Below, piece after piece: positions 14,801-57,238 of a stretch of 64,000 nt of DNA (its first letter is position 1; each line of letters opens with the position of its first letter). A program made the position numbers and the translations under genes. The stretch lies in NCBI GenBank assembly GCA_020630615.1, contig JAHDBA010000005.1:38709-102708 (forward strand), read 5' to 3'. Origin of the DNA: Myxococcota bacterium (lineage in GTDB: Bacteria; Myxococcota; UBA727; JAHDBA01). The notes below the pieces were generated by a model, which had not been told where the DNA came from, did no database searches, and saw only the letters and a program-made list of their open reading frames with translations.

Positions 14801-15534
14801 TGCTTCAGGAAATGCTTCAAGAGAATCCAAGAGCCTTTGTCTACGCCGGACACGGTGGTATCGATCGTATCACAAAATCTGGGTGGCTATCACCAGAGCT
14901 GATGACTGAACTCCGCTCTCAAATGTCTTCTCCTCTACCCTTTGCGAGTTTGATGACGTGTCATGCGGGTTCTTTTGCGCATCCACGTGTGCGCGGCTTT
15001 GCCGAGGCGCACATGTTGGGTGAGAATCCATTTGCACTTGCGTGGATTTCTGCAGGTGCTGCAACGATTGATGTTGATAATCGTATTTTGGGTCAGGCAA
15101 TTATGAGGGAAGCAGGTTCAAATCTTGGAAACGCTCGGATTGGAGATTTAATGCGTTCAGCATTAGCGAGCACGATTGAGCGGGATGAAGAGCTTCGACA
15201 TAACCATCTTGCGTATAATCTTTTGGGTGATCCTGCGATGCTTCTGCCTCGGCGTCATGCGGGCAATACTTTGAATGCCTATGAAGCAAGAGAAATCCCA
15301 AGTGCAGGAGTGAGAGTTGACTCATTGTTGAGTGAACATAGTGTTGTGACGAACACCAATACGTTTGGTAACTTTGATGAGAAACTACACACATCAACGA
15401 TGAGTCAAGGCGTGGATCGAGGTTGTGCCACATCGTCATCCTCGCCATTTCTAACCTTGTTTGGATTTGCGCTTATCCTGTGGCGGCGTAATGCATGGCA
15501 GAATCAAAACGAATCGATAAAGCATTTTAAATAA
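11806..15534 (+). CDS. Secreted RTX-repeat / gingipain(C25)-like cysteine peptidase with C-terminal sorting-type tail
   Basis: N-terminal TM/signal. About 20 GGxGxDxUx nonapeptides (GGAGDDVINGGNGDDQITGGDDNDEIYGGDGND...) at nt ~12200-12800. C25-like block: DVAIGRIPVETKDEAQTYITSLIEYEE, then His in VYAGHGG and Cys in LMTCHAGSF at clan-CD dyad spacing. The C-terminus is GCATSSSSPFLTLFGFALILWRR. Confidence 0.6.
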   Translation: MINIKHTFVGKSSRIEFVLPLFLSIVFFAPISFAQFAEGPTGITIPDSCTDIDSWCPNSANCTDHDMSVDGNPLTITGGGGIGQCHCVLGTSGSDSLQIDNPPNAVDIYVCFNAGIDVNSLINGTSPSDITWHINGGAGDDALSGSNNNDFIDGAAGDDVINGGNGDDQITGGDDNDEIYGGDGNDFLEGNDGSDTIDGQAGDDVVLGGPGNDGDVSNCDHNQTVPPAGLFGGPGTDSVQGGDGDDCIFLGDGNENFYNNVQGNQGGGYGGAGNDVIYGGSGNDTVDGQSGNDIVNGGPGNDLVGGGTGNDHVNGNEGVDTVNGSGGTDECVDMGDGDPDYSSEGFGGCEQFTYASIDKVRLKDQNGSMLLEWSTASEASTLGFKVIGYDALNRAHLITEFVPAIPNGGGGSDYQIHLTDRYERIDIQEIGQNNFGNRFSLKVQELQQNNRATKVYQSSSISSARLQPVKHERVIDALDNLSPIHEAIVEVSNEGWISISPSTLAPIMGYSIEEIQRAAVEGNLRITLNGESVAYRAIPSTGIEFYARKPSSLYQNYDAYRVELQEGRKLVDGEWFELSATNTIATMSVNEKFEVNNFAGTAIANSANQDYWYWAAIARSASVPDFETELTLTQDPTSSVALNILLRGASVALHTRHQVDAYVDGVLLKTLTFSEKESGILEFDVPRELIHDKKVHLSLRMSTSASAQSVVYIDRIKANFSSAENLAADVVHGTDGHHTLSVTEGVAGRIVSASGNYFEIGADSTQRSIQLSESFVWLPLKKSIAQFRVRPRRVVNISNSVEHLVVTKRALAIEANQLAAHRSRSGFRSQVVYFDDIADTFGASQNDPRVIHRLIRELSESLKYVVLFGSGNFDYKNHYGLGAGHLPPMMISSSDGGIVVSDQLLGDTDGDLEMDVAIGRIPVETKDEAQTYITSLIEYEENLASRSYGPIELLADAHRDSISDFDRDIDAFSSQVNVDIDVEQMSVDSVSSPEELSDMLQEMLQENPRAFVYAGHGGIDRITKSGWLSPELMTELRSQMSSPLPFASLMTCHAGSFAHPRVRGFAEAHMLGENPFALAWISAGAATIDVDNRILGQAIMREAGSNLGNARIGDLMRSALASTIERDEELRHNHLAYNLLGDPAMLLPRRHAGNTLNAYEAREIPSAGVRVDSLLSEHSVVTNTNTFGNFDEKLHTSTMSQGVDRGCATSSSSPFLTLFGFALILWRRNAWQNQNESIKHFK

Positions 15535-18121: not shown

Positions 18122-18254
18122 TTAAAAGTCTATAGAAATCAGCTGCATTCATCTTTATTCTCGATGAGAAGGGCTAAAAACATGCGTTCGTAATCAGACT
18201 TCGCTACTCTAAACATATGATACAAAATCATGCTGTCCAGAGTAGGTGTATGCG

Positions 18255-28714: not shown

Positions 28715-29722
28715 ATGCCGAAAGATCATAACCTGTCTTTGGATGCCAGTGCAGGCGGCAAGCTCGTTATTGCCGGCGAATATGCGGTACTTTTAGGGTG
28801 CGAAGCTTGGGTTATGCCGACCTTGGCAAGGGCCCATGTTCGAATCGAGACGATGCAGGCGAGCGCTTCTTCAGGACTGATGACACTGAAAAACTACAAG
28901 ACCCATCCACGAAAGAGCCCTCTGAGTAAGCATCTGATTTCAAAGTCAATTGAATGGGGTTGGTTGAATGAAAAAAAATTGTCATTGGATTACGAGTTAA
29001 CATTCGACTTTCAAAGTTCCGAGTTCACACATGGTGACACAAAGCTTGGTCTGGGTTCATCCTCTGCATTGACTCTTGCATGGGTAAGAGCTTTGAGGGC
29101 TTATCATGAATCTTTAAAAGACTCTCAACACCAAAAAAGATTCGAAAGTGAAGCCAAGCATGCGTATCAACTGCACGATTCTTTTGGCGGAGGCTCAGGA
29201 ATCGACATCGCACAGGCCTTATCCGAAAAGCCCATTCTTTTCTCAATGACACACGATTCCGATGGGAAAGTTCTTCGGCGAATCAAGGACGCTCCACCAT
29301 TGGCATTCCCTTGGCGCCCATTAACCTTCTTTGTTGGACACGCGCAAAACACACGTCCCTTTGTGAGGGCCTTTGAACATGCCTATCGTCATCAGAAGAA
29401 CAAAGTCGATACTGCGATTCGAGAAATTCGAGAAAGCTCTCAAGGAATGATCGACCTGGCCTTTCAGGGCGATGACTTCTCGCACTTTTTAGAGCATGTT
29501 TCTCGACATGCAGCTGCTATGTCCGAATTGGGAATGCATATTGATGTTGATATTGTGTCCCATGAACATCAAGAGATAATTCGATGGGCAAAGGCGCATG
29601 GGGGCGCTGCGAAACCCAGTGGTGCTGGTGGGGGCGACATCGCCTTGGCTTGGATTCCCCAAGAGCATTTAAGTTCAGCGCTATCCACCTGCCCACTCAA
29701 ACCCATGGAGCTCTTAAAATGA
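28715..29722 (+). CDS. GHMP kinase, probable phosphomevalonate kinase
   Basis: GHMP motif LGLGSSSALTLAW. Second GHMP kinase in the mevalonate cluster, distinct from mvk. Assignment is by context. Confidence 0.6.
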   Translation: MPKDHNLSLDASAGGKLVIAGEYAVLLGCEAWVMPTLARAHVRIETMQASASSGLMTLKNYKTHPRKSPLSKHLISKSIEWGWLNEKKLSLDYELTFDFQSSEFTHGDTKLGLGSSSALTLAWVRALRAYHESLKDSQHQKRFESEAKHAYQLHDSFGGGSGIDIAQALSEKPILFSMTHDSDGKVLRRIKDAPPLAFPWRPLTFFVGHAQNTRPFVRAFEHAYRHQKNKVDTAIREIRESSQGMIDLAFQGDDFSHFLEHVSRHAAAMSELGMHIDVDIVSHEHQEIIRWAKAHGGAAKPSGAGGGDIALAWIPQEHLSSALSTCPLKPMELLK

Positions 29723-30336
29723 AACCAATGAACGATGATGCTGCACATGAACTTGAACGGGATCGCGTCGTTTCTTCGGACGATGATCTTCTAATATGCG
29801 TTAACCCTGACGATGAAGTCATTGGGTACGAGCGTAAAGACCGTTGTCATAAGGGTGAGGGCCTACTGCACCGCGCATTCTCAATCTTTCTTTTTAATGA
29901 CGCCGGTGAACTTCTTTTACAAGAGCGCGACATATCCAAACTCTTATGGCCGAGTACATGGTCGAATACGTGCTGTTCGCATCCGCGTAAGGGTCAGAGT
30001 ATCGAAGAGGCAGCAGGTATTCGACTGCGCGACGAACTGAATTGTGAAGCGAGGCTGCAAAAGGTGTATACCTTTCGCTACCATGCGTCGTATCAAGATC
30101 GTGGTAGTGAGAATGAAATGTGCACCGTTCTTATTGGACACTTGAATCACACTCCCAACTACAATCGAAATGAGGTTTCGAGAATGAAATGGACGAGTGC
30201 TCAAGAACTCGAAGGCGAGCTTATTGCAAAACCCATGGACTACACCCCATGGTTTCGAATGGAGTTTCAAGAGTTGAGAACATCGTTTTGGCCGCAGATT
30301 GAAAAGGTGATTGCTCAAGGGAAGGGGAATTCATGA
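29719..30336 (+). CDS. idi: Isopentenyl-diphosphate delta-isomerase, type 1 (Nudix)
   Basis: HRAFSIFLFN...LLLQERDISKLLWPSTWSNTCCSHP matches the type-1 IDI catalytic core. Start ATG 29719 overlaps the upstream stop (ATGA). Confidence 0.8.
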   Translation: MKPMNDDAAHELERDRVVSSDDDLLICVNPDDEVIGYERKDRCHKGEGLLHRAFSIFLFNDAGELLLQERDISKLLWPSTWSNTCCSHPRKGQSIEEAAGIRLRDELNCEARLQKVYTFRYHASYQDRGSENEMCTVLIGHLNHTPNYNRNEVSRMKWTSAQELEGELIAKPMDYTPWFRMEFQELRTSFWPQIEKVIAQGKGNS

Positions 30337-31391
30337 ATACTTATCAGCGCTCGCTTCAAAAATGGGAGCATCCAATTGGGGTCGAGCTTCTACGGGATTT
30401 CCCCGCAGAGCAGAGTCGAAGGATGGAAGCGAACTCCGAGTGTGCCTTTGGCAACACAATATTAAGGGCCATGGCTCGAAGACATCTTGAGAACAAAGGA
30501 AAACTCTTACGCGCCCATTTACCCTTGTGGATTGGTGAAAACCTTGGAGGAGCGATTCAGCATGCAATGCACCTTGGTGTTGCATGTGAGTTGATGCACA
30601 ACGCAACACTTGTTCACGATGACATTCAAGATGGGGACACGCATCGTCGTGGTCAGCCCACACTGTGGAAGCGCTACGGTATTGCACAAGCGATCAATGT
30701 TGGCGACGGACTCTTTTTCTATGCTCAGAAACGTCTGCACGAGATTGATGACCCTGCTCTAAGCCTGGAACTCTCTAAACTTGTATCCTCCGCTTTGCTT
30801 TCTACAATTCAAGGTCAAACACTTGAACTTGATTTTCAAGAATGGAAATCCTCACTTGAAAGTTTAAAAACGAAGCAGGAGCAATTGGTGCCAACCTATT
30901 TTGAAATTGTACGTGCGAAAACAGGAGCTCTTTTTTGCGCCGCTTCGCTTGGCGGTGCCAAAATTGCAGGGATGCCCCAAGCACTCAGGGACACGCTTCG
31001 TGATTTGACGCTCGAGCTTGGAGAACTCTTTCAGGTTCAGGACGATTACCTTGATCTGGTTGGAGACAAAGGACGCACTTCGAAAGCAAATGATATCGCG
31101 GAAGGCAAGTTGTCCTACCCTGTTGCGCGAGCGTTGAGTCAATCCAATCTTGGGGATGCTTCGATGTCTGAGTTGATTGCGATACTTTCATTAAGCCGAG
31201 AACAAACTCGAAGTGAAGATCGAAGCAAAGCGCTTGAACTCTTGGAAGATTCGGGTTCGTTGAAAGATACTCAGGCATGGCTGCAAAGGCGAGTTGACGA
31301 TTTTGGTGAAAAAGCGTCCCGAGAATCAAGCTTTGAGCTCTTATTGGGTTTGGCTGAATACATGGTAGCACCTCTAGCCGATTTTCTCTAA
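30333..31391 (+). CDS. Polyprenyl diphosphate synthase (FPP/GGPP synthase family)
   Basis: First DDxxD LVHDDIQDGD and second FQVQDDYLD aspartate-rich motifs. 4-nt overlap with idi. Confidence 0.8.
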   Translation: MNTYQRSLQKWEHPIGVELLRDFPAEQSRRMEANSECAFGNTILRAMARRHLENKGKLLRAHLPLWIGENLGGAIQHAMHLGVACELMHNATLVHDDIQDGDTHRRGQPTLWKRYGIAQAINVGDGLFFYAQKRLHEIDDPALSLELSKLVSSALLSTIQGQTLELDFQEWKSSLESLKTKQEQLVPTYFEIVRAKTGALFCAASLGGAKIAGMPQALRDTLRDLTLELGELFQVQDDYLDLVGDKGRTSKANDIAEGKLSYPVARALSQSNLGDASMSELIAILSLSREQTRSEDRSKALELLEDSGSLKDTQAWLQRRVDDFGEKASRESSFELLLGLAEYMVAPLADFL

Positions 31392-31513
31392 AAGCACGGT
31401 GCAAGTTTGTCGATGTTGCTCGAGCTTCAATTCGATCGTGTAAAAGCTGCTCAGCGCCTTGTCGTTCGTCAGTGGTGAATACGCTTAATGAGCTGTCTTA
31501 AACGCTTGGCAAG

Positions 31514-32980
31514 TTGAATTGTGCGTGGGATGCTAAGGGTGTGAGTGAAGAAAGATCGAAACGTTCATCTAGGGTTCCAGGCTTTTACACTCAAGGCCGG
31601 GAGCAACGTTTTCGCGCGCTTGGTGCTGAAGGCATCCATTTTACCAAAGAAGAGAAATTAGCTCTTGACGAGGGTGGGCTGACGTTAAAACGGGCTGAGA
31701 ACATGATCGAAAATGTTCTTGGGCTTTACAGTTTGCCTTTTGGTGTCGCACTGAACTTTCGCATTGATCACGAAGATCTTTTTATTCCGTTGGTGGTTGA
31801 AGAACCGAGTATTGTTGCTGCGTGTTCAAATATTGCAAAGCTTAGCCGAGCGGGCGATGGTTTTATCACTTCGTCTGAAGCATCTGTTATGAAAGGACAG
31901 ATCCAAATACTTTTTAATGACGCTTTTGGGTTGAATACCTTTAAGCAGGCCTTTGAAAATGCAAAACCATCTCTTCTTGAGAGTGCCAATCGCTTGTGTC
32001 CTGGTTTAGTATCACGGGGTGGTGGTGTTCTCGCTCTGCGTTTTCGTACTCTTCCACCCAATGCCAGATCCAAGTACCATCAGGGTTGGAGCTCGCCAGA
32101 CACAATCATGGGAGTTGTGGAGCTTCACGTCGATTGCATCGATGCAATGGGCGCCAATATCATTAACAGTGTTTGTGAGGGCATGCGCTTCGAGCTCCAA
32201 CAACGCTTTAACATACAAACTCATATCGCGATTCTTTCCAATCTGGCCGATCTACGTTGTGCTGAAGCACGCGTCGAAATACCTCTTCACGCTTTAGCCG
32301 GAAAAGAATCCAAGGACTCAACGCCTGATGAGAGCCAACGCTATGTTGAAGGTTTGCAACAAGGACATCGAATTGTCTCTGCGTATGAAATGGCGTTGCG
32401 CGATCCCTATCGTGCTTGCACCCATAACAAAGGGATCATGAACGGCATTGATGGGGTTGCGGTTGCAACAGGGAATGACTGGAGATCGATTGAGGCTGCG
32501 GCACATGCTTATGCAGCATTATCAGGTCAATATACGACCTTATCACGCTTTCGAGTTTCAAGGGACGAGCAAAACTTGGAGTGCGAGTTACGAATGCCAA
32601 TGGCGGTTGGTACGGTAGGCGGATCCATTTTGGTTCATGAGGGTGTTCGTGCTGCGCGCGCACTCTTGGGGGCTAGGGCGGAAAAAGCGGGTGAACTTGC
32701 GCGGGTTATGGTGGCCGTCGGCCTTGCACAAAATATCGGTGCGCTTCATGCGCTTGCCGGTGAGGGGATCCAGCGCGGCCACATGAGCCTTCATATTCGT
32801 CAGGTTCTCCTTGAAATTGGTGCAGCGTCTCACGAAATATCAACACTCAAAGAGCAGTTGATAGCGACGGGAGAACTCAACCGTCAAGCAGCCCGAGCCG
32901 CCTTGAAGGCACTCAGAAATAAAGACTGCAAAGAACCGAAAGATAAGCTTGTGATGTCGAAGTTGAAGCGGGAAGGATGA
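31514..32980 (+). CDS. mvaA: HMG-CoA reductase, class II
   Basis: VPGFY..., DNMIENVLGLYSLPFGVA and PLVVEEPSIVAACSNIAKL match class-II HMGR. The 31514 codon is TTG. An alternative GTG at 31541 has an AAGGG RBS. Start is uncertain. Confidence 0.8.
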   Translation: MNCAWDAKGVSEERSKRSSRVPGFYTQGREQRFRALGAEGIHFTKEEKLALDEGGLTLKRAENMIENVLGLYSLPFGVALNFRIDHEDLFIPLVVEEPSIVAACSNIAKLSRAGDGFITSSEASVMKGQIQILFNDAFGLNTFKQAFENAKPSLLESANRLCPGLVSRGGGVLALRFRTLPPNARSKYHQGWSSPDTIMGVVELHVDCIDAMGANIINSVCEGMRFELQQRFNIQTHIAILSNLADLRCAEARVEIPLHALAGKESKDSTPDESQRYVEGLQQGHRIVSAYEMALRDPYRACTHNKGIMNGIDGVAVATGNDWRSIEAAAHAYAALSGQYTTLSRFRVSRDEQNLECELRMPMAVGTVGGSILVHEGVRAARALLGARAEKAGELARVMVAVGLAQNIGALHALAGEGIQRGHMSLHIRQVLLEIGAASHEISTLKEQLIATGELNRQAARAALKALRNKDCKEPKDKLVMSKLKREG

Positions 32981-32981
32981 G

Positions 32982-34001
32982 ATGGAGCCCGTATTTGAAG
33001 CGCCTTTAGTGCCTAAGCTTGCTGTCGGGTATGCACCGGGTAAGGTGATTGTCGGTGGTGAGCATGCGGTGGTCTATGGTCACCCTGCCTTTGCTTTGCC
33101 TTTACCTTTTGGGATTCGTGTCTTGACCACGGCGCAAACACTTCCGCGTTCGAACCCGCGTCCCTTGGAAGAACGATGCAAGGTTCAAAGCGACGCGATG
33201 GATATTCTGTCCCCAACTTCGCTTGAGCAGCTCCGGGGAACTTTCCCGGATGCGGTGTCTGCTTTTCGAAAGATTATTGGGTTTTGGAATCGCGGATATG
33301 AAGCCGATCATTCTCTTCACTTAAACTTTCGTATTGATGGCGATTTGATCCCTGCATCAGGTCTTGGGTCCTCTGCGGCAACTCTTGTTGCCCTTTATCG
33401 AAGTCTTGAAGCGATACGGCCCTTTCATCCTGAAATACAATGTGAGTCTGCTGTATTCGAGGCTGAAGCTGTTTTTCACGGCACTCCATCGGGGATTGAC
33501 CACTCTACGAGTATTCTCGGAAAACCATGTATGTTTCGCCGCAGTGGAAAAAAAATAGAATGCGAGGCGCTGCATTGTGCAAAAGAGCAACCTTGGCTTC
33601 TCGTGACACGGGCGAGGCAAAGTCGAACTCAGTTTAGTGTCGATCAGATCAAACGCCGATACCGTAAAGAGCCTATCCGCGTGTCGAAAGCATTTGATGC
33701 GATCGCGCTCCTTGTACTTAAAATGCGAGACAATTATCGTCATGCCCAACCCAAAGAACTTGGTTCTCTGATGAATGAGAATCACCGCATTTTGGAAGAT
33801 CTTGGACTTGTGTCCAAGGAAGCAGCAGCGCTGCATCCGATGTTGATTGAAAAGGGGGCATTGGGTGCAAAGGTCAGCGGTGCCGCAGGTGACAAATTAT
33901 GTTTATTGGCGCTCTTAAAACCTGAGCTTGATCCGAAAGTCATCACGCGAGAGCTTGAGTCAAAGGTTATGAATATTGAATGCCGATCATTTTCTGCTTA
34001 A
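32982..34001 (+). CDS. mvk: Mevalonate kinase
   Basis: GKVIVGGEHAVVYG N-terminal motif and GHMP ATP motif PASGLGSSAATLVAL. Start is 1 nt after the mvaA stop. Confidence 0.8.
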   Translation: MEPVFEAPLVPKLAVGYAPGKVIVGGEHAVVYGHPAFALPLPFGIRVLTTAQTLPRSNPRPLEERCKVQSDAMDILSPTSLEQLRGTFPDAVSAFRKIIGFWNRGYEADHSLHLNFRIDGDLIPASGLGSSAATLVALYRSLEAIRPFHPEIQCESAVFEAEAVFHGTPSGIDHSTSILGKPCMFRRSGKKIECEALHCAKEQPWLLVTRARQSRTQFSVDQIKRRYRKEPIRVSKAFDAIALLVLKMRDNYRHAQPKELGSLMNENHRILEDLGLVSKEAAALHPMLIEKGALGAKVSGAAGDKLCLLALLKPELDPKVITRELESKVMNIECRSFSA

Positions 34002-48164: not shown

Positions 48165-50726
48165 ATGCAAAGCCAAAAGAAGCCCTGGTTTCTCTGGGTG
48201 ATACTCACACTCTTGGGTATGATCGTCTTTCACCAATTGGGATGCGCATCAACACTTAGGGACTCGCTCCGACGTATTGAAAGCGACCATTGGTCTGAGC
48301 GCTACCTTGGGGATCATCCGCTCAATCGCAGCGTAGTCCTTCGAATTGACGAGAGCACTGTACACGACTTTGGTTGTCCACCCTATGATGAAAAATCGTG
48401 GAAGACACTGAACAATCAAATCATGGCTGCAGGCATTGAAAAAGTTGCGTTCTTTGGTCGCGAAAGAGCGTGGCATCAATCACTTAACAATCCAGCTTCG
48501 CTCGAGGTGTATTTTCTTCAAGCAGGGGAGACTATTCAAGATTACATTCAGCGATTGAGTAATTTGGAGTTAGGACAAAAGACTCATGCTACAAAGTCGA
48601 TAGAGCAGGATTTGAGTTTAGCCGAATCGATTCTTGACATGCGGGAGCGTGGCCTCGCTGATCTTTACGAAAGTTTAGAAATTCCGGGTTTGGCCCTGTC
48701 GATGTTGAACTCCGGTATTACCACTCAGCAGTCTTTTAAAAACTTTAACGAACCACCGCTCTTCATTGTGACTTCGGAATCCATGGCATGTTTTACGGGA
48801 CATGGAAGCCCGATGGAAGACCATCTCACACAATGGCTTAAACTCAAGCACCTTCATAAGTTAACTTTACCGGATCTGATTCATGGGACTTTACTCTATT
48901 TCTTGTTGATGAGTATTGCTGGAATGGCGCTCTTTGTATTCCCCCTTCATACACTGTGGAAGGAGTCCTTCTACTTCATCACACTGCTCGCTTCCTTCTT
49001 TATCGTGTCTGAGATTCTTTACCGTTTGCAATCAAACTATTTACCGATTCTTTCGGGTGCATTGACTTGGGTCACATTTCGAGGGCTCAGGCAACTTTTT
49101 GTAATGACGTGGCAAAGACGACTCTTTATTGCCTTCGTGAAGAGGACTCGCCCCTATTTGGAGGAATGGCAACGTGGCCGAGCGCAATGGAAAGAGCGTA
49201 GCTTTGAAGATAAACATCGCGAGATTCTCGAGTTTTTGAGCACACTAAGTGAACCGATTCACTCCCATGTTTTTCAGACGAATGAAGAGAGTATTCTTAC
49301 GCTAGATCAATGGCATCATCCAGATTCTGAGTTTGCCTCGGAGAATTATGAGCTTCAAAACCAACTTTTGAAAATGACTCGCGAGGGACGGCGAAAACTG
49401 AAATTCAATCGTGAAAGGCATTTGCGTTCCTATCTTTATGAGCTCAGTCTCCCTTCATCAACGATAAAAACCTATTGGCATATCGAGTGCAGTGGCACCC
49501 CAAACCACCAGCGCTCCGAAGAAGATGAAGATAAACTTTTGGGTAATGTTTTAAATATGATGATGTGGCTAAGCGATACGGAGACCCACGCCAGCGCGTC
49601 TCCCCCAAAGAGCTTTCGAGGGACGAACCAATTCAAAGACATTTTTGCGAATCCACTGGAAATGAATTTAATGACGCACTTGCTGGATCAGATCGAACGC
49701 GAGCACACAATTTTGGGTGAGTTTGATCTTGCATGCGCTTTGGTTTCTTTACGCGGTGTTGTCGGCTTTACCAACCCAGCATTCGATGCTCTTTTGAAAG
49801 ACGAGAACATCAATCGAGATGGAACGATTGACAAAGTGCTCATTGCGATGGGAGGGACATGGGTCGAACGAATCTTACGAAGGGCTTGGGCGGGGAGACG
49901 GGTTCAGTTTGAGATTCTAACTCCAAAAGGCACAAGTCTCGATATTCGTATACAACCCATTTGTCTGAATGTCGCACGGAATAGGATTCGCAAAGGAAGT
50001 GCCACATCTTTTCTGATGACTCTTCGCCAGGTCTCACGTATTGATCAAAGTCGAAGAGACCGCGCTCGCAATGCAACATATATTGTTCCTAAACTTCGCA
50101 ATTTGCTCTCAATCATGAAGATGTCGGGCGACATGCTAGGGATGAACATTCGTGCAAGTGCAAAAGGAGAGGAAACCAAAGCCCTTCGCTCGATTCAAGA
50201 TGTTCTTACGCGAAAGAGTAGTGTTATGGCGAGTCGCCTTGATCAACTTGAGGCAATCTCTTCATCCTTGATCGAGGGTCATGATGAAATTCGAGAACGG
50301 GTTTTTGTGGATATTCAGGATCTTGTCAAAGACTCCTTCCTTGATTTTCAGTCTCGCAAAGAAAGAGACTTGAACCTCAAACTTAACCTTGAGGAGAGCC
50401 AACTTGTGTCTCCAGTTCTTTGTGCCCCTCGCATTCTTCGCGATCTTCTTGTCGAAGTTTTTCGAAGTCTAGTCTTTCATCATGGCGACAATGAAATTTG
50501 TGTCGGCATCGGTGAAGAGTTGGGGACTGTCCACCTTCAAATAGAAACGCGAGTCGCCGATGGTGTTGTGAGTGATCTCCAAAGAGAGATAGGGACTCAA
50601 CGGGAAGACTTAAAAGAGCTGGTAGAAGCTTTCTCTGAATTTGAGATTGATGTCGAAATTATAAATGAGGGTCATCGACGTCTTTTTGATGCGCGCTTTC
50701 CAGTTTTGCGAGAGTTCCAGGAATGA
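48165..50726 (+). CDS. CHASE2-like sensor domain protein with 3-TM module and large uncharacterised cytoplasmic domain
   Basis: N-terminal TM/lipobox. RSVVLRIDESTVHDFGCPPYDEKSWKTLNNQIMAAGIEKVAFFG fits the CHASE2 N-terminal signature. A three-helix TM block follows at residues ~235-305. The C-terminal ~540 aa has only weak HisK-like hints. Confidence 0.5.
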   Translation: MQSQKKPWFLWVILTLLGMIVFHQLGCASTLRDSLRRIESDHWSERYLGDHPLNRSVVLRIDESTVHDFGCPPYDEKSWKTLNNQIMAAGIEKVAFFGRERAWHQSLNNPASLEVYFLQAGETIQDYIQRLSNLELGQKTHATKSIEQDLSLAESILDMRERGLADLYESLEIPGLALSMLNSGITTQQSFKNFNEPPLFIVTSESMACFTGHGSPMEDHLTQWLKLKHLHKLTLPDLIHGTLLYFLLMSIAGMALFVFPLHTLWKESFYFITLLASFFIVSEILYRLQSNYLPILSGALTWVTFRGLRQLFVMTWQRRLFIAFVKRTRPYLEEWQRGRAQWKERSFEDKHREILEFLSTLSEPIHSHVFQTNEESILTLDQWHHPDSEFASENYELQNQLLKMTREGRRKLKFNRERHLRSYLYELSLPSSTIKTYWHIECSGTPNHQRSEEDEDKLLGNVLNMMMWLSDTETHASASPPKSFRGTNQFKDIFANPLEMNLMTHLLDQIEREHTILGEFDLACALVSLRGVVGFTNPAFDALLKDENINRDGTIDKVLIAMGGTWVERILRRAWAGRRVQFEILTPKGTSLDIRIQPICLNVARNRIRKGSATSFLMTLRQVSRIDQSRRDRARNATYIVPKLRNLLSIMKMSGDMLGMNIRASAKGEETKALRSIQDVLTRKSSVMASRLDQLEAISSSLIEGHDEIRERVFVDIQDLVKDSFLDFQSRKERDLNLKLNLEESQLVSPVLCAPRILRDLLVEVFRSLVFHHGDNEICVGIGEELGTVHLQIETRVADGVVSDLQREIGTQREDLKELVEAFSEFEIDVEIINEGHRRLFDARFPVLREFQE

Positions 50727-53569
50727 TTCTCGATATTTTTCCAGACCAGGGATTAAGTTACACCATCTATTTGCCGGTGTTGATCGGGATATTCTTTTTA
50801 TGGTTGTGCAACGAAGCCTTTGGATGGCCGCGTGATGGATGGGTTGTTCCCGGTTATGTCGGTATGGTTCTTTTTACGAACCCAGAATCAGCAGCTTTGA
50901 TGATGATCGAGGCACTCTATGTTTATTATGCCGTTGTGCTTTTTTCGGAAATGGGTGCACGACTTGGTTTTTGGAACCGTTTTTTTGGTCGAGAACGTTT
51001 CTTTCTCTTTGTGATCGTTTCGATCCTCGTTCGCTATCTTTTTGAGCTATGGCTTTTACACCCTTCAACCTCTTGGTTGTCGACCTGGTTGAGTGAAGGC
51101 ACATCATCGCTTGATGCCTTTCACTCGATTGGTCTTGTTCTTGTGCCACTGATCGCAAACAGCTTTTGGAAATCGGGACCGGCCAAAGGCATGCTTCGGA
51201 CTCTCTTTTTGTTGGGCATCACCTATAGTGTGATTCGACTGGCACTCCAGGACCATACAAACTTCACGATTGAGTACTTTCGCCTAATTTACGAAGATAT
51301 TTCGATGCGCTTTGAATCGGGTGCGAAAGTCTATGTGATTCTCATCGTTGCGGGATACGTTGCAGCATGGACGAATTTGAGATGGGGTTGGGATTACAAT
51401 GGAATTCTAATGCCTTCATTGTTGGCTGTTGCAATGTTCTTCCCAATTAAAATTTTAGCGAGTCTGATTGAAGCGATAATCATTGCCTTTGCGTTTGGAT
51501 TGATTACGAAAGTCCGTCCATTCAATACAATTGCCTTTGGGGGCGGCCGGCAAATTTTAGTACTATACGCTCTTGAAGTGGGTATTAAATGGATCGCTTC
51601 AATCTTCTATCAGCCACTTTGGCCAGGAATGAAAGTGACAGACCTCTTTGGGTTTGGGTATGTGCTTCCAGCGTTGCTTGCAGTTAAGATTCTTCAGAAA
51701 CGCCAATTTGGAATTGTTATTGGACCGACAATGGTTTGCATTGTCCTTTCATTTGCTTTGGGAACTCTCACATCGATATCGGTGACTCCCTTCTTTGAAA
51801 ACGTAGACTTCAATATGCCAGACCCCAATGAACGTACTCTTGCAGAAGGATCACTCGTCAATGCATTGAGCATGTCGAAAGCAACCCGACCCAGCCAGGC
51901 CGAGATTGCCACATTCATAAAAGAGCCACTGGCATACCAAACTATCGCTCGACGCTTAACCGGATGGGTTTTGGGCGAAAGCCCTTTACCTACTTCGTGT
52001 CACGATCGAAGCGTTTCGCGACTGAAGCAGCGTTATGCCTATCAATGTGAGCGCTACTTCATCGACAACGACCACCCGTTGAATCAACATTGGTCCAGTT
52101 CCTTTAAAAAACAATCTTGGCTGCATATTCACCTCCGTGAAAAAAAAGTTGAAAAGGCGCGTTCGGGAAGCCCTGAACTCTTAGTGGCCGTAGGCGGAGA
52201 GGGGCCCCGACTCCTCGCTGAGCCTTATGGAGATGATGCCTCTCGCTTTGCCGCGCTCAAAGCATGTCTACGCGTCAATTGTGCAATGATTGTCTTTACG
52301 CCACGCGGTCCAGAGAATGAGTGGTCTTTCCGCAAGCAAGTGTTAACGTCGAAAACACCAATTGTAGCGTATAAAAACTCCTCAAAATCGCCAATACTTG
52401 AAGTCCATCTGAATGAAAGAATTCAAAGTGACTTTCAACTCACCCTTTTTGGAGATCTAAGTTCGGGCCAAAACAAGCAACTTGTCGAGAAGCTTGGGAC
52501 ACACTTTAGTGGTTCTCCATCGTCAAAGTTTCAAATTCTTTGGGACTTTATGCCTGAACGTTATCGATTTGATGGTCGCTTGGATGTGAAGCTTTCTGCT
52601 CGAGAGATGCGGGAGGTCACGACCCGAAAAAGCAATCGGCCACATTTGTCGAATATCAAAGAGTTTGACGCTTATGAAAATCGTAATACAGCCTCACTTG
52701 TGATTGAACCGATGATCAGCTGTATCGATACCTGGGCGTCCGAACGGTGTCGCATCAATTTTGATAGGGCTCAACATATCGGCCGACGTATGGGTCTACG
52801 CTCTGCCCAACTCCTTCGGCAGGAACCTTCAGGGCAGGACATGGTATGGGCGGTACACATGACTCGACGGGTTCGAGATCAACGTGATGATGAGAGTGTT
52901 CATTTTCTTTTCAATTACCATGCAAAAGCAAAAGGAAGGATCCTTATTGCGCACCACTGGCAAAGTGGTGATGTCCTTTCAAGTGCGATGAAGCGTTTTG
53001 AGGAGGATGAAGTCGAGGCGATACTTTGGACAGAAGGGGATGGTGCTACGAACCGCGCCAGTAGGCTTACTCTCGCTTTTACAAGTGCATATCGAAAACT
53101 ATATGGCGCACACGCAGACTACATCTTTATTGCACCAACGTGGGGCTACTGCGATTCAAAGAACATTTACGTGAACAACATGCGAGGTGGAAACCTATTG
53201 GAAGAATCGGCCACCTACCTCGCGGAAATCTTAGGCACATCGCCTGAGAACATGCTGAGCCGCACATGGGTCAAGGAGCCCTGTCGCGATAAGGATTGGC
53301 GCTACCATCAAAGTTATCGACTTTTACGAATCGCCAATTATCCACGCGTATGGGACCTATCCATCTCACATCAAATACTCACGAATATTCCTGTGCCCAA
53401 AACACCCTTCCTTCAGTCCTTATTGCGATTATCTGTACATGCCCAAGATCAAACCCAGAAAAGTGGATTGAAGGTTGAGGAAGACCCAAGCCATAACTCC
53501 AACGATCACGCTTTCCTAAACTTTTCTGCAGGGCCTTCCCCAGCAATACACAGGGGCAAAACGCAGTGA
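50723..53569 (+). CDS. Polytopic membrane protein with tandem-duplicated PgsC/CapC-like domain fused to ~600-aa uncharacterised C-terminal domain
   Basis: FGWPRDGWVVPGYVGMVLF...FFGRERFFLFVIVSIL...HSIGLVLVPLIANSF parallels B. subtilis PgsC (GIVPAGLVVPGYLGLVF...LYGRRKFAAML...GIGIIVPGLIANTI). A second copy lies at residues ~200-330 (GILMPSLLAV...GYVLPALLAVKI). 4-nt overlap with the upstream gene. Confidence 0.5.
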   Translation: MILDIFPDQGLSYTIYLPVLIGIFFLWLCNEAFGWPRDGWVVPGYVGMVLFTNPESAALMMIEALYVYYAVVLFSEMGARLGFWNRFFGRERFFLFVIVSILVRYLFELWLLHPSTSWLSTWLSEGTSSLDAFHSIGLVLVPLIANSFWKSGPAKGMLRTLFLLGITYSVIRLALQDHTNFTIEYFRLIYEDISMRFESGAKVYVILIVAGYVAAWTNLRWGWDYNGILMPSLLAVAMFFPIKILASLIEAIIIAFAFGLITKVRPFNTIAFGGGRQILVLYALEVGIKWIASIFYQPLWPGMKVTDLFGFGYVLPALLAVKILQKRQFGIVIGPTMVCIVLSFALGTLTSISVTPFFENVDFNMPDPNERTLAEGSLVNALSMSKATRPSQAEIATFIKEPLAYQTIARRLTGWVLGESPLPTSCHDRSVSRLKQRYAYQCERYFIDNDHPLNQHWSSSFKKQSWLHIHLREKKVEKARSGSPELLVAVGGEGPRLLAEPYGDDASRFAALKACLRVNCAMIVFTPRGPENEWSFRKQVLTSKTPIVAYKNSSKSPILEVHLNERIQSDFQLTLFGDLSSGQNKQLVEKLGTHFSGSPSSKFQILWDFMPERYRFDGRLDVKLSAREMREVTTRKSNRPHLSNIKEFDAYENRNTASLVIEPMISCIDTWASERCRINFDRAQHIGRRMGLRSAQLLRQEPSGQDMVWAVHMTRRVRDQRDDESVHFLFNYHAKAKGRILIAHHWQSGDVLSSAMKRFEEDEVEAILWTEGDGATNRASRLTLAFTSAYRKLYGAHADYIFIAPTWGYCDSKNIYVNNMRGGNLLEESATYLAEILGTSPENMLSRTWVKEPCRDKDWRYHQSYRLLRIANYPRVWDLSISHQILTNIPVPKTPFLQSLLRLSVHAQDQTQKSGLKVEEDPSHNSNDHAFLNFSAGPSPAIHRGKTQ

Positions 53570-56112
53570 GGCGTAGCGATCAACTCTTAATGTTTCTCTT
53601 GCTCTTGCTCGCCATCGCCGGGGTTTTTGATCGTTGTTCAAGTCAAGCGGCGGACAGTATTGTAGAGAATACAAGTACGGTCTATTTGTATCCCTTGGCT
53701 GATGGTGTTCACATGCGCCTTCCAACCCTGGCGCATGAGTTTCAACTTCAGGTCAGTGCGTCGATACCTTTAGCGCATGCCACTGAGCTCGGTCGTACGC
53801 GTCCACGTTCCACAATACATCTTCGGGCACGCAATGAACGACAAGAAATCGTGTTTGAACGTGATTATGATCTTCGTTTTTCGTGCCCGGATCGCATTGA
53901 AACACGCCACGTGCCCGTTCGACTTTCTCGCACCAGCGCTCACGAACATAACCTGTTATCAACGTGTCACCCACAGTCGATCTATTTTGAAAGCGCTGTG
54001 GATGCAAGCGCGGTTTCAACGATTGAAGTGTCAGCACGTGAGGCAAAAAACTTTCAAATCTTTGGTCGTCTTTTCATGCTTGAGCGCCCAGAGTCTTTTC
54101 AATCGTGGAGCGGGTATCGAGGCGGGCTTTGGATGCACGAGAAGTTGAATCGATTTTTGAGAGTTGGTTCCAGTTTATGGGAAATGCCTGCTGCGGAGCT
54201 CGAAGAATGGGCATCCGAGCGATGGGTTTCTTTGCAGCCGGAAACACGCGAGAGACAAAGAGAACCGGAGCTCTTCACAAAACATCGCTTTGCTCTTGAT
54301 CGCTCGGAACTCGTACGTGAACTGGGCGTTCGTTTTGATGCGCTAGAACAAGTTCATGTCTGGAATGTCGTGGGTCCTGCGAAGCTTAAGGTTGAAACGT
54401 TAGGGGATCCTTTTTTCGGGGATGCATTTATCTACAACTCCAGAACACCTTTGCAAAGCGTGGGACAAAAAGTCCAGCATGGTTCTGAGGTCGAGATTCC
54501 TGAAGGGGACTGGTCCTTGCTCATTCGCTGGGACCTGACTGATGAGCAAAAGCAAAATGCAAATCGACAGGATGTGACACTGCCCGATGAAGCCAAGCAA
54601 AGCTTTGATCCCCTTGCCTACCTGACTTTGAGTACAATGAGCAGAGAAGCCCTCGCTTTCTTTGGAACGACGCTGCATCCAAGCGTCAAAAGGAACGGAA
54701 ATTTCATCTTACAAAAGCAAAATAGAGTCTCTCCCGGGATTCTATTGGGACTTCAAGAAGGTCGTGAGCATATCTCCAAAAGTTTTAACAATGGAGTATT
54801 GGACTCGGCCCATAGAACGCTTCTCCTTGCGTTGCGTGTGGCGAGTGAAGATGATGGATTGACGCAACGCACGTGTGAAGTCCGATTTCATGACGACGAC
54901 AACAATCTGCTCGCATCACAAAAAGTCGATCTAAGTGCCATCGTTGAAAAAATTGATTATGCAATCAATTCCTTAACTGGACAACGTCTATGGCTTTCCG
55001 AGCGCGACAAACACTATATTCAAGTACCCCGAGGTGCGAAGGGAATGAATTTGGTATGTGATATGCCGACGCTTGTTCAACTCTCGACCCAACGAAGGAA
55101 CTTGAATATTCAAGATTTGAAAGAAGAGGGACGGTGGCAGGCTCGAGGAAACCCTCGACATGATCGATCGTGGCGCTCGATAGAGTGGGATCTAAAACCA
55201 AGTCAAAGAAAACATACCCTCGTACAGGTGCATCAGCAGCCACGACACCGACTCTTTCGAGGGCATCATGAAGTTGAAGCAGAAAGGGAGAGGCTGATTC
55301 AATCGTATCAAAGCCTTAAACCCATGAATCGGCCGACCTTTTCGATTTACCGTGAGGTTGAGACATGGAAACGCGAGGCTGTCGTCAGGTGTCAAATGCC
55401 AATCGACAAGGAAGGGACCCTGAACCTTCCTCGCGAACCCGCAAGTCCCAATCGTTTTGTGTTGGACATTCAAAGCCGAGTTCCATTTTCTGGATTATCA
55501 AAGCGGGTCAAGGTCTTGAGTCAAGGTCAAGAACTATCACAATGGAAATGGGAGCGACGTGAGCATCAACTTCGAGTCAGTCGTTTAGGAGAAGAACGAC
55601 TCACGCTTGAACTTCGAGACAGCGGCCGCGGTGAACATTGGGTTCGTGTCTCGAAACCGTCAGGTCTAGGTCGATGTCGCCAACAAATGAATGTTGTCGC
55701 CTTAGCCCCAAATACGTCATTGAAGGTTAATGCTTTTCACAGGGGAGTGAAGACCAACGTCAATTTTAAGGTTTTGGGGAGTATGCCAAACTACCATTTG
55801 CAAACACATGTCGAGATACCGCAAAATGCGATGCGCACCTTTGCGCGTGGCCACACGATGCAAAGCCAACAACATCGACTCGAAAGTGAAGAAACGATCA
55901 ATATATGGAGAAGTGTGGACGCACCCATGCGCCAAAGAAACAAGGGCCGTGTGGTGCATGCGCTGAAAGACGACCTCAAACAAGGACGATACACGCTCAC
56001 ACTTAAAAATAGGGGACACGAGACGCTTTGGGTTCTGGCCTTTCAAGAAGGGCAAGACCGGCGTGAGGCTCTGCGTTCCATACTTTGGAAGGAGGATCGC
56101 TTCCGTGAATAA
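53566..56112 (+). CDS. Secreted hypothetical protein (848 aa)
   Basis: Signal peptide MFLLLLLAIAGVF. 4-nt overlap with the upstream gene. No motif recognised. Confidence 0.5.
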   Translation: MRRSDQLLMFLLLLLAIAGVFDRCSSQAADSIVENTSTVYLYPLADGVHMRLPTLAHEFQLQVSASIPLAHATELGRTRPRSTIHLRARNERQEIVFERDYDLRFSCPDRIETRHVPVRLSRTSAHEHNLLSTCHPQSIYFESAVDASAVSTIEVSAREAKNFQIFGRLFMLERPESFQSWSGYRGGLWMHEKLNRFLRVGSSLWEMPAAELEEWASERWVSLQPETRERQREPELFTKHRFALDRSELVRELGVRFDALEQVHVWNVVGPAKLKVETLGDPFFGDAFIYNSRTPLQSVGQKVQHGSEVEIPEGDWSLLIRWDLTDEQKQNANRQDVTLPDEAKQSFDPLAYLTLSTMSREALAFFGTTLHPSVKRNGNFILQKQNRVSPGILLGLQEGREHISKSFNNGVLDSAHRTLLLALRVASEDDGLTQRTCEVRFHDDDNNLLASQKVDLSAIVEKIDYAINSLTGQRLWLSERDKHYIQVPRGAKGMNLVCDMPTLVQLSTQRRNLNIQDLKEEGRWQARGNPRHDRSWRSIEWDLKPSQRKHTLVQVHQQPRHRLFRGHHEVEAERERLIQSYQSLKPMNRPTFSIYREVETWKREAVVRCQMPIDKEGTLNLPREPASPNRFVLDIQSRVPFSGLSKRVKVLSQGQELSQWKWERREHQLRVSRLGEERLTLELRDSGRGEHWVRVSKPSGLGRCRQQMNVVALAPNTSLKVNAFHRGVKTNVNFKVLGSMPNYHLQTHVEIPQNAMRTFARGHTMQSQQHRLESEETINIWRSVDAPMRQRNKGRVVHALKDDLKQGRYTLTLKNRGHETLWVLAFQEGQDRREALRSILWKEDRFRE

Positions 56113-57238
56113 GCGTATTGAATCCATAGGGACGCGTTGTGGCTTGAGAAAGACGATTGCGATTGTCACAATGGTTGTGATTTCGCAGAGCAGTCTTGCT
56201 GAAGAACAGAACAACGGTTTTAGCTCGCGCACGAAGTTTGCACAAAACAAAAAGTTTCTCGTAGAACCCCACGAAGATGCAGAGTGTTATCCAATGCTAC
56301 GCAATCTACGTCGAGCGTCGAATCGTGTTCAAAGCCCTGGACGAATACGTTTGCGTCAAACACAACTTGCATTACAAGCTATATGGCGCACCGAGAACCC
56401 AAGAGTTGTTGATGGAGTCAACCAGAAGCTTGCAGAGTACGGTCTCACTTTTTCCAAGTGCACATCGGAGATCACGACTTCAAAACAATCTCCAAGAGCA
56501 AGCGATCAATGGTGGCTTCTTCACGAGATAGAACCGATGTCATTTGGTTATGGTGCAACACTGATTCGTGCAGGTGCAAACCTGAAGCACGGAAATACGG
56601 TAGTTCAAATTCCACACTCCTATTATGACAAAGGAACCCTAGCATTTGTACGCGAAGCGATGCGTATACCTGGGATCAATGTGATCATGGTAAATACAGT
56701 TCATCGCTACCGTGCGAAAGGGGTTAGCGACCAGGACCGTGATGTCCATCTCGCAGATTTTGCGCATCAAGACGCAAGCCTTTACCAAGCTTTGACACAA
56801 ACGATAGCAAGGCTCGCCCCCCAAAGTCGCTTTGTTCAGATGCACGGGTATAAAAACACCAAGAGTGCAGAACTGATTTTGAGTGCGGGGCTACGCCATC
56901 CTGAACCCTCCTTACGCGCATTGCTTAGAAGATTAAAAGCGAAGCTCGAATCCTTTGCGAATGCTAAGTTGAGCCCATGCACTTTCAAAACACTTTTGTA
57001 CCCGAGCCAAAGTCGACGCTTGGGTGGGACACAAAACACCCAAGCGCGCTGGTTGAATCCACGCGGGTATCGTTTTCTACATGTTGAAATGTCCTCAGCC
57101 TTACGTGAGCAAAGCACTGCATCGCCTGGTTGTCGACGAAAGATACTTGAAGCCTTGGTGGATGCTCCTACGGAAGGTCTCAAAGAGGGCGAACGCCTAA
57201 ACACACAGAGTACTGAATCCAGTGCAGGGCGCCACTAG
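56105..57238 (+). CDS. Secreted hypothetical protein, possible metal-dependent hydrolase
   Basis: GTG 56105 behind a strong AGGAGGA RBS, overlapping the upstream stop. Good signal peptide (NKRIESIGTRCGLRKTIAIVTMVVISQSSLA). His-containing blocks IPHSYYDKGT, HLADFAHQD and VQMHGYKN. Confidence 0.4.
   Translation: MNKRIESIGTRCGLRKTIAIVTMVVISQSSLAEEQNNGFSSRTKFAQNKKFLVEPHEDAECYPMLRNLRRASNRVQSPGRIRLRQTQLALQAIWRTENPRVVDGVNQKLAEYGLTFSKCTSEITTSKQSPRASDQWWLLHEIEPMSFGYGATLIRAGANLKHGNTVVQIPHSYYDKGTLAFVREAMRIPGINVIMVNTVHRYRAKGVSDQDRDVHLADFAHQDASLYQALTQTIARLAPQSRFVQMHGYKNTKSAELILSAGLRHPEPSLRALLRRLKAKLESFANAKLSPCTFKTLLYPSQSRRLGGTQNTQARWLNPRGYRFLHVEMSSALREQSTASPGCRRKILEALVDAPTEGLKEGERLNTQSTESSAGRH

Follow-up and report, generated by a model that had tools for sequence, protein, structure and literature searches.

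Does a CapC-like membrane protein that holds two copies of its domain in a single chain still work in a poly-gamma-glutamate synthase, or does it mark a different polymer chemistry? The question is raised by a 64,000 nt stretch from a Myxococcota bacterium (GenBank assembly GCA_020630615.1, contig JAHDBA010000005.1, positions 38,709 to 102,708, forward strand; in the following called the window), in which such a protein, here called gene B, lies within a run of six genes, A to F. To our knowledge, poly-gamma-glutamate synthesis is understood almost solely from the PgsBCA(E) system of Bacillus. An initial annotation, made from the window sequence alone, had recognized the two CapC-like copies, had seen no partner ligase and had suggested that a CapC-like scaffold serves some other amide or polymer chemistry. 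From the analysis described below we consider it likely that gene B stands for PgsC/CapC in the inner membrane, as one subunit of a large apparatus of the PgsBCA type by which two-membrane bacteria make and export a polyamide, the polymer being most likely poly-gamma-glutamate or a close relative.

Gene B is a tandem CapC fusion protein

The six genes A to F are tightly packed on the same strand, with stops and starts that overlap or nearly abut (Table 1). The stop codon of gene A overlaps the start of gene B (ATGA), and the GTG start of gene C overlaps the stop of gene B (GTGA).

Table 1. Coordinates of genes A to F and of the domains of gene B in the window. Positions count from the first letter of the window; bits refer to PF14102; pLDDT, predicted local distance difference test.
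Feature	Position	Strand	Description
Gene A	48165..50726	+	853-aa membrane sensor-like protein (CHASE2 / histidine-kinase-like ATPase family)
Gene B	50723..53569	+	948-aa predicted inner-membrane protein, CapC-CapC-[pseudo-PghP]-[pseudo-PghP]
CapC/PgsC repeat 1 (gene B)	50783..51187	+	aa 21-155; 79.2 bits, profile positions 1-117 of 119; AlphaFold2 pLDDT >90
CapC/PgsC repeat 2 (gene B)	51362..51700	+	aa 214-326; 52.3 bits, profile positions 6-113 of 119
Putative degenerate PghP-like domain 1, core (gene B)	52118..52315	+	aa ~466-531; domain probably ~430-640
Putative degenerate PghP-like domain 2, core (gene B)	52799..53134	+	aa ~693-804; domain probably reaches ~930
Gene C	53566..56112	+	848 aa; N-terminal signal-like hydrophobic segment; no known domain
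Gene D	56105..57238	+	377 aa from GTG at 56105 (GGAGG before); longest open reading frame begins at 56063; putative secreted Zn amidohydrolase
Gene E	57241..62295	+	1684 aa; signal-like N-terminus; C-terminal region resembling an outer-membrane beta-barrel
Gene F, N-terminal 558 codons	62324..64000	+	runs past the window end; ortholog of ~1300-1650-aa PgsB-fusion proteins; HEAT-like

The family profile PF14102 (Caps_synth_CapC) matched the whole of gene B in two stretches with 113.2 bits, above the Pfam threshold. We also scanned three slices of the protein separately (aa 1-197, aa 198-376 and the last 572 aa); both CapC repeats exceeded the gathering cutoff of 27 bits on their own, which bears out the two fused copies proposed in the initial annotation by the very comparison it had called for. 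All motifs that it had quoted were found as well, WVVPGYVGMVLF at aa 40-51 (nt 50840-50875) and VLVPLIANSF at aa 139-148 for the first copy, GILMPSLLAV at aa 227-236 and GYVLPALLAVKI at aa 312-323 for the second. In a profile-to-profile comparison by hhalign the two repeats aligned with each other over 136 columns (probability 90%, E 1.6e-6), so that the tandem duplication is real and not due to chance. The equivalog model TIGR04011 (poly_gGlu_PgsC) scored 56.2 bits (E 4.3e-15) against a trusted cutoff of 96.45. Gene B is thus a genuine tandem CapC fusion and a relative of PgsC, not an equivalog.

An AlphaFold2 model built with 114 homologs gave pLDDT values mostly above 90 for aa ~10-360 and of 50-80 or lower for the C-terminal part. 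A search of PDB sequences with gene B yielded nothing meaningful and no PgsC structure. The last 572 aa matched no Pfam or NCBIfam family, including P-loop and Mur-ligase families, and the protein has no ligase motif of its own, in agreement with the earlier statement on P-loop and PgsB-like Mur-ligase motifs.

Across the gene B family, loops rich in lysine and arginine (aa 79-92, 148-160, 262-277 and 321-329) occur together with acidic or neutral segments (N-terminus, aa 117-136, 177-202 and 299-314). In a positive-inside analysis, the last helix (aa 329-359) has a charge of +3 on its N-terminal flank and an acidic C-terminal flank, a bias that indicates an in-to-out orientation and hence a C-terminal region that is probably periplasmic. 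This orientation agrees with the secretion predicted for gene D and with B. subtilis PgsC, whose C-terminus was PhoA-positive (PMC7490850).

Gene B therefore shares with PgsC/CapC of the Bacillus PgsBCA(E)/CapBCA(E) systems (PF14102; TIGR04011) a full-length CapC domain, present in each half of its N-terminal 360 aa, and a probably extracytoplasmic C-terminus as in B. subtilis PgsC (PMC7490850). The canonical protein, however, stands alone, with ~150 aa and a single CapC domain, whereas gene B has 948 aa, two CapC domains and ~590 additional residues forming two domains that resemble inactive hydrolases.

Orthologous operons encode a PgsB-like ligase

The order A-B-C-D-E(-F), with similar gene sizes, recurs on the Corallococcus exiguus chromosome, in loci of other phyla with low guanine-cytosine (GC) content and in metagenomic contigs. 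The fetched loci are designated by L numbers. When they were searched with B. subtilis PgsB, three loci matched at E 1e-28 to 1e-32, two of them inside the large open reading frame (ORF) that follows gene D and one in a convergent gene. Identity of these PgsB-like domains to B. subtilis PgsB was about 27-30%. The NCBIfam model TIGR04012 (PgsB) confirmed this result independently, as it matched gene F of L042, L076, L082 and L084 and the convergent gene of L056 at E 1e-55 to 1e-60, with 189-205 bits. In L085, a local hidden Markov model (HMM) placed the PgsB-like domain of gene F at aa 688-1062 (E 4.6e-142). An intact GxRGKSGTE nucleotide-binding motif was seen in gene F of L042 and L082.

A single hydrophobic helix (aa ~689-716) lies just ahead of the PgsB-like domain in gene F of L042 (16399-20508), L082 (14871-19100) and L085 (14895-19418). 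The ~370-aa domain behind this helix, at about aa 690-1060 in the orthologs, resembles PgsB/CapB (TIGR04012) with its N-terminal anchor. Unlike PgsB, the ligase is embedded in a protein of 1300-1650 aa, between a HEAT-like N-terminal region of ~690 aa and a C-terminal region of ~300 aa, and its TIGR04012 score stays just under the equivalog cutoff.

Longer flanks, reached through homologs of gene D, brought complete clusters to light. In L082, the cluster consists of gene A (CHASE2), gene B (two CapC domains), C, D, E, gene F (1407 aa; TIGR04012 at aa 698-1038, 205 bits) and a seventh gene, G, for a protein of more than 721 aa with the PGA_cap domain PF09587 of PgsA/CapA. L084 has the same set with G convergent, so that a PGA_cap gene adjoins gene F in both loci. 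These PGA_cap proteins, at more than 720 aa, differ in size from PgsA/CapA. They (L082 19141-20835; L084 18823-20817) also gave weak NCBIfam matches to the lasso-peptide epimerase MslH, at E 1.8e-9 and 5e-7. The L085 cluster runs from A to F.

The window ends within gene F. In a single-pass phmmer search this fragment matched gene F PgsB-fusion proteins only, namely those of L042 (E 2e-18), L076 (8.6e-12), L082 (4.5e-10), L085 (2.2e-7) and L084 (4.5e-7), and BLASTP aligned it with gene F of L082 at 39% identity over 84 aa (E 4e-12). In the orthologs, the part that was matched is found 130-230 residues ahead of the ligase domain, so the ligase of this gene is expected near codon 690, at about nt 64,390, outside the window. 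We scanned 42 other ORFs of the window with Pfam (the majority of the ORFs with 150 aa or more, and a single shorter one) and genes A to E and the partial gene F with NCBIfam; none of the scanned ORFs contained a complete pgsB or pgsA, or a Mur-ligase, ATP-grasp, GNAT or PGA_cap family. The earlier statement that the window has no pgsB or pgsA homolog thus holds for complete genes among the ORFs scanned, but the ORF at 62324 is most likely the start of a PgsB-fusion gene, and the apparent lack of pgsB is probably an effect of the window edge.

These results also bear on the proposal that a CapC-like scaffold works without a PgsB-type ligase and that the C-terminal domain of gene B supplies a different amide or polymer chemistry. 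It could draw on the lack of any ligase, ATP-grasp or GNAT family in gene B or the other scanned ORFs, and on the TIGR04011 score of gene B under the equivalog cutoff. Orthologous operons, however, encode a PgsB-like ligase in gene F, the start of which is present in the window, and the C-terminal part of gene B is made up of two hydrolase-fold domains with degenerate catalytic sites (see below) and no ligase. We therefore hold this proposal to be highly improbable and rank it as the least likely of the alternatives.

Gene D and the C-terminal part of gene B

By single-pass phmmer, 55 of 81 related loci had a gene D homolog at a distance of 5-6 kb downstream from gene B. A word-indexed search with the single sequence returned three matches, and an alignment query was used for wider recovery. 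Pairwise, gene D is 35% identical to its Corallococcus counterpart (E 4e-27). Invariant in the family are the motifs QxPH[ST][FY]xDxxT, NTxHR, D[LV]AH, QLHGF, LGGTxNxQ and FxHxExS. The poly-gamma-glutamate hydrolase family PF05908 gave weak matches in five of 51 family members (best E 3.9e-4) and no match to gene D of the window at the gathering cutoff; a search of PDB sequences with the gene D profile yielded nothing meaningful.

The core of gene D was modeled with a pLDDT of 83 and superposed best on the phage poly-gamma-glutamate hydrolase PghP (3a9l, 13.5), Atu2144 (2odf, 13.4), B. subtilis YndL with bound poly-gamma-glutamate (5onj, 12.9), N-formylglutamate amidohydrolase (2q7s, 12.6) and several M14 carboxypeptidases (about 12). 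The fold is that of PghP and the FGase-fold proteins, and the His/acid/His metal-binding residues are conserved. Its N-terminus appears signal-peptide-like by eye; a hydropathy scan (threshold 1.6) flagged no segment. We conclude that gene D encodes a putative Zn amidohydrolase of the PghP/FGase fold, predicted to be secreted. It differs from PghP of phage PhiNIT1 and from B. subtilis YndL/YoqZ (PF05908) in its marginal similarity to this family. It is also chromosomal and embedded in an operon, with the signal-like N-terminal segment, whereas PghP is phage-borne. Secreted relatives occur outside the operon context: gene-D-like PghP-fold proteins of ~410 aa (P0160-P0164; P0163 from a metagenome-assembled genome (MAG) of Flavobacteriaceae) have the sorting domain of T9SS type A (PF18962).

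A profile built from gene D proteins only matched homologs of gene B twice, at aa ~450-560 and ~740-950, with a whole-protein jackhmmer E of ~1e-14 at iteration 2. When the gene B family, with window residues as match states, was compared with the gene D family by hhalign, domain 1 aligned with a probability of 93.7% (E 2e-7) and domain 2 with 97.4% (E 1.5e-11). We compared the key residues of gene D with copy 1 in 25 homologs and copy 2 in 68 homologs, numbering H60 and H136 from window nt 56438. The first putative metal ligand, H60, is replaced in all 25 homologs of copy 1 (by A, R, Y, S or D, mostly A) and is R, A or S in every homolog aligned there in copy 2. The second histidine, H136, was covered in eight of the 25 homologs for copy 1, with R in six and H in two; where copy 2 aligned, R was found 27 times and H five times. 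Of the 23 homologs that cover the conserved E217 in copy 2, 21 have W at this place; copy 1 does not cover this column.

The C-terminal part of gene B, ~600 aa that had been described as an unknown domain, is therefore supported as two degenerate copies of a gene-D-type domain that have lost the predicted key residues across the family. At the family level they lack the metal-binding and catalytic residues of PghP/FGase-fold Zn amidohydrolases; in contrast to PghP, YndL/YoqZ and other FGase-fold proteins, the fused copies are without the His ligands and the conserved Glu. Most simply, they may be read as inactivated, binding-only derivatives. They are not ATP-grasp, GNAT or transglutaminase domains; the structure prediction that had been proposed as a check gave no fold match.

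Genes A, C and E

Searches by phmmer and jackhmmer from genes A, C and E of the window gave no matches; HMMs of the syntenic families recovered A and C, not E. An HMM of 47 syntenic gene A proteins matched gene A of the window colinearly (E 1.1e-9). The orthologs bear CHASE2 (PF05226) and HATPase_c (PF02518) domains; gene A of the window itself had no significant Pfam match. Its hydrophobic segments lie at aa 7-31, 238-265 and 267-286. The family alignment is poorly conserved with regard to histidine-kinase motifs. By eye, a candidate H-box region (IVPKLRNLL) seemingly lacks the phospho-accepting histidine, and gene A may be a pseudokinase. In L085, a stand-alone response regulator (PF00072; 19499-19897) directly follows gene F and may partner the gene A sensor.

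Gene C was matched over its full length by an HMM of 50 syntenic proteins (E 3.7e-22) and by no Pfam or NCBIfam family; its hydrophobic segment spans aa 3-26. Gene E was assigned to the operon by position and size, since an equally placed gene of the same size class (~1350-1660 aa) is present in L001, L082, L084, L085 and others. An alternating pattern and a terminal Tyr make a C-terminal beta-barrel likely. All-vs-all clustering of the flanking ORFs gave no further family in at least 15 loci besides the operon genes and antisense artefacts.

Two loci depart from the common arrangement: in L086 (10001-14979) genes D and E are paired without A-B-C, and in L087 gene D is divergent and adjoins A-B-C. 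The hydrolase gene D and gene E may thus form a semi-independent module.

Distribution in diderm bacteria

A word-indexed search recovered at least 400 homologs of gene B, nearly all of 950-1250 aa, the best of them from Myxococcota and "Deltaproteobacteria" MAGs. In an exhaustive profile search of 1.84 billion cluster representatives (50% identity), 703 relatives were found at E≤1e-30. With few exceptions, the best 150 of these align end to end over the ~1070-position profile, and the whole architecture of gene B is therefore conserved, beyond its CapC part. Among GTDB species genomes we found 418 relatives and read the taxonomy from the best 80. These belong to Gammaproteobacteria (Thiodiazotropha, Chromatiaceae, Thiomargarita, Methylococcaceae), Zetaproteobacteria (Mariprofundus), Betaproteobacteria (Accumulibacter, Hydrogenophilales), Desulfobacterota (Electrothrix, Geobacter), Myxococcota, Campylobacterota, Planctomycetota, Acidobacteriota, Verrucomicrobiota and Poribacteria. 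Conservation of the operon extends from Myxococcota to at least seven further phyla of diderms. Besides the diderm hosts, the four additional large genes of the operon set it apart from the PgsC/CapC systems.

Some of this was already known. Homologs of gene B are named "PgsC/CapC" in NCBI (Corallococcus, Sorangium, Nannocystaceae, Myxococcota MAGs) and UniRef (Aggregicoccus, Pseudenhygromyxa), and PgsB and PgsC homologs of myxobacteria appear in databases and in the supplements of PMC4497714. In the latter, BLAST homologs of B. subtilis PgsB are tabulated for Corallococcus, Haliangium and Sorangium, the proteins reaching to residue ~1064-1161, and those of PgsC for Haliangium and Sorangium; their architecture is not discussed there. 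Apart from these supplementary BLAST tables, our literature searches found no description of the tandem CapC fusion, the pseudo-PghP domains, the PgsB-fusion gene F or the six- or seven-gene diderm operon. The stalk-formation (sfz) cluster of Zetaproteobacteria was considered as an identity for the operon and rejected; it encodes BcsB-like and GT2 proteins and neither CapC nor CHASE2 (PMC8250860).

Many carriers are predatory Myxococcota, and the cluster could conceivably sense, degrade, take up or remodel exogenous poly-gamma-glutamate, in a catabolic or predatory role with the CapC modules as an import channel. The intact, putatively secreted PghP-like hydrolase, the two hydrolase-derived binding domains, the CHASE2 sensor-like protein and the pairing of D and E without A-B-C in L086 would fit such a role. 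The same clusters, however, contain an ATP-dependent PgsB-like ligase and PGA_cap, which are biosynthetic and have no known catabolic role, and the carriers include the chemolithotrophs Mariprofundus, Thiodiazotropha and Electrothrix. We regard a catabolic function as quite improbable.

A predicted polyamide synthesis and export machine

Taken together, CapC, the PgsB-like ligase, PGA_cap and the PghP-like hydrolase are four independent modules that tie the operon to gamma-glutamyl polyamide biology. The synthase reading given at the outset builds on directly supported elements: the domain identities, the conserved synteny, the family-level loss of catalytic residues and the linkage of PgsB-like and PGA_cap genes to gene B in orthologous clusters, a linkage shared with PgsC/CapC. 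According to this reading, the PgsB-like domain of gene F, held by its single hydrophobic helix, would polymerize glutamate with ATP at the cytoplasmic face. The fused CapC modules of gene B would be a single-chain version of a presumed dimer of stand-alone PgsC and would act as membrane partner and conduit for the growing chain. The PghP-derived domains of gene B, probably in the periplasm, would receive the chain as non-hydrolytic polymer-binding modules, and the intact enzyme encoded by gene D might shorten the polymer or set it free. Genes C and E, large proteins with signal-like N-termini and in the case of E a likely beta-barrel end, would carry it over the periplasm and the outer membrane. 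Gene A could regulate the system, and the PgsA-like PGA_cap protein, where present, would complete the core.

Several observations weigh against this reading. The polymer product is a prediction for every member of the family. The TIGR04011 score of gene B and the TIGR04012 scores of the gene F orthologs (189-205 bits, cutoff 222.7) both lie under the equivalog cutoffs, and the substrate of the ligase could differ from glutamate. The PgsB-like and PGA_cap parts lie outside the window and are attributed to this genome by orthology and synteny; in L085, the PGA_cap gene is not adjacent to gene F. With ~690 aa ahead of its single helix and without a signal peptide, gene F poses a topological difficulty; the helix could be a hairpin or a monotopic anchor. 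For gene B, the predicted topology is derived from charge bias. Searches with the gene D HMM and hmmalign found no match in the C-terminal part of the window's gene B itself, which is too diverged, so that the PghP-like assignment stands at the level of the family, by profile-profile comparison; AlphaFold2 modeled these domains with low confidence (50-80) and without a fold match. No gene D was detected within 10 kb in several Sorangium loci, and the match of the syntenic gene E family HMM to gene E of the window was not significant (E 0.06).

Scores of this kind would also fit an operon that makes another polyamide or an envelope modification, with a diverged PgsB-like ligase that takes a different substrate, for instance a glutamylated acceptor or an acidic amino acid other than glutamate. 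The identity of about 27-30% to B. subtilis PgsB points in the same direction, as do the parts without a counterpart in PgsBCA, namely the giant proteins C and E and the first ~690 aa of gene F. On the other hand, CapC, PgsB-like and PGA_cap proteins are the hallmark trio of poly-gamma-glutamate synthases, and gene D is most like enzymes acting on gamma-glutamyl or N-acyl-glutamate amides. We therefore judge a product other than poly-gamma-glutamate or its close relatives to be unlikely, though less so than the catabolic function.

In its most far-reaching form, the proposal of a poly-gamma-glutamate-type synthase describes a trans-envelope synthesis and secretion machine of diderms in at least eight phyla. 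PgsC would be a covalent pseudo-dimer with two dead hydrolase modules for polymer handling, PgsB would sit in a scaffold of ~1400 aa, and periplasmic and outer-membrane giants together with a CHASE2 sensor would complete the machine. We put this forward tentatively, as an attractive possibility that is somewhat less secure than the role of gene B itself. If true, canonical PgsC would work as a dimer, for which the natural PgsC-PgsC covalent fusion argues; the fusion may also be a better-behaved target for structural work. The inactivated PghP-like domains on the membrane subunit suggest a way of holding a nascent anionic polyamide and handing it outward, and with the A-F(G) operon there would be a first candidate for a route by which such a polymer is exported over two membranes. 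Myxobacteria, cable bacteria, sulfur-oxidizing symbionts and iron oxidizers would then make an unrecognized extracellular polyamide. The carriers are ecologically important (Myxococcota, Electrothrix, Thiodiazotropha, Mariprofundus, Accumulibacter), and such a polymer could affect biofilm, metal binding or predation.

Other features of the window

The GC content of the window is 46%; despite this value, the sources of the best gene B homologs fit an origin in a Myxococcota-like lineage. Upstream of the operon, a protein of 1242 aa (11806-15534, + strand) has both RTX calcium-binding repeats and a gingipain-like Peptidase_C25 domain. Two large cysteine-rich proteins have 14 (18246-21332, + strand) and three (39307-41469, - strand) matches to the DUF4215 repeat; such repeats are common in Myxococcota-like lineages. 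Between these two lies a mevalonate-pathway cluster (27719-34001, + strand) with genes for diphosphomevalonate decarboxylase, GHMP kinases, a NUDIX protein, polyprenyl synthase and HMG-CoA reductase.

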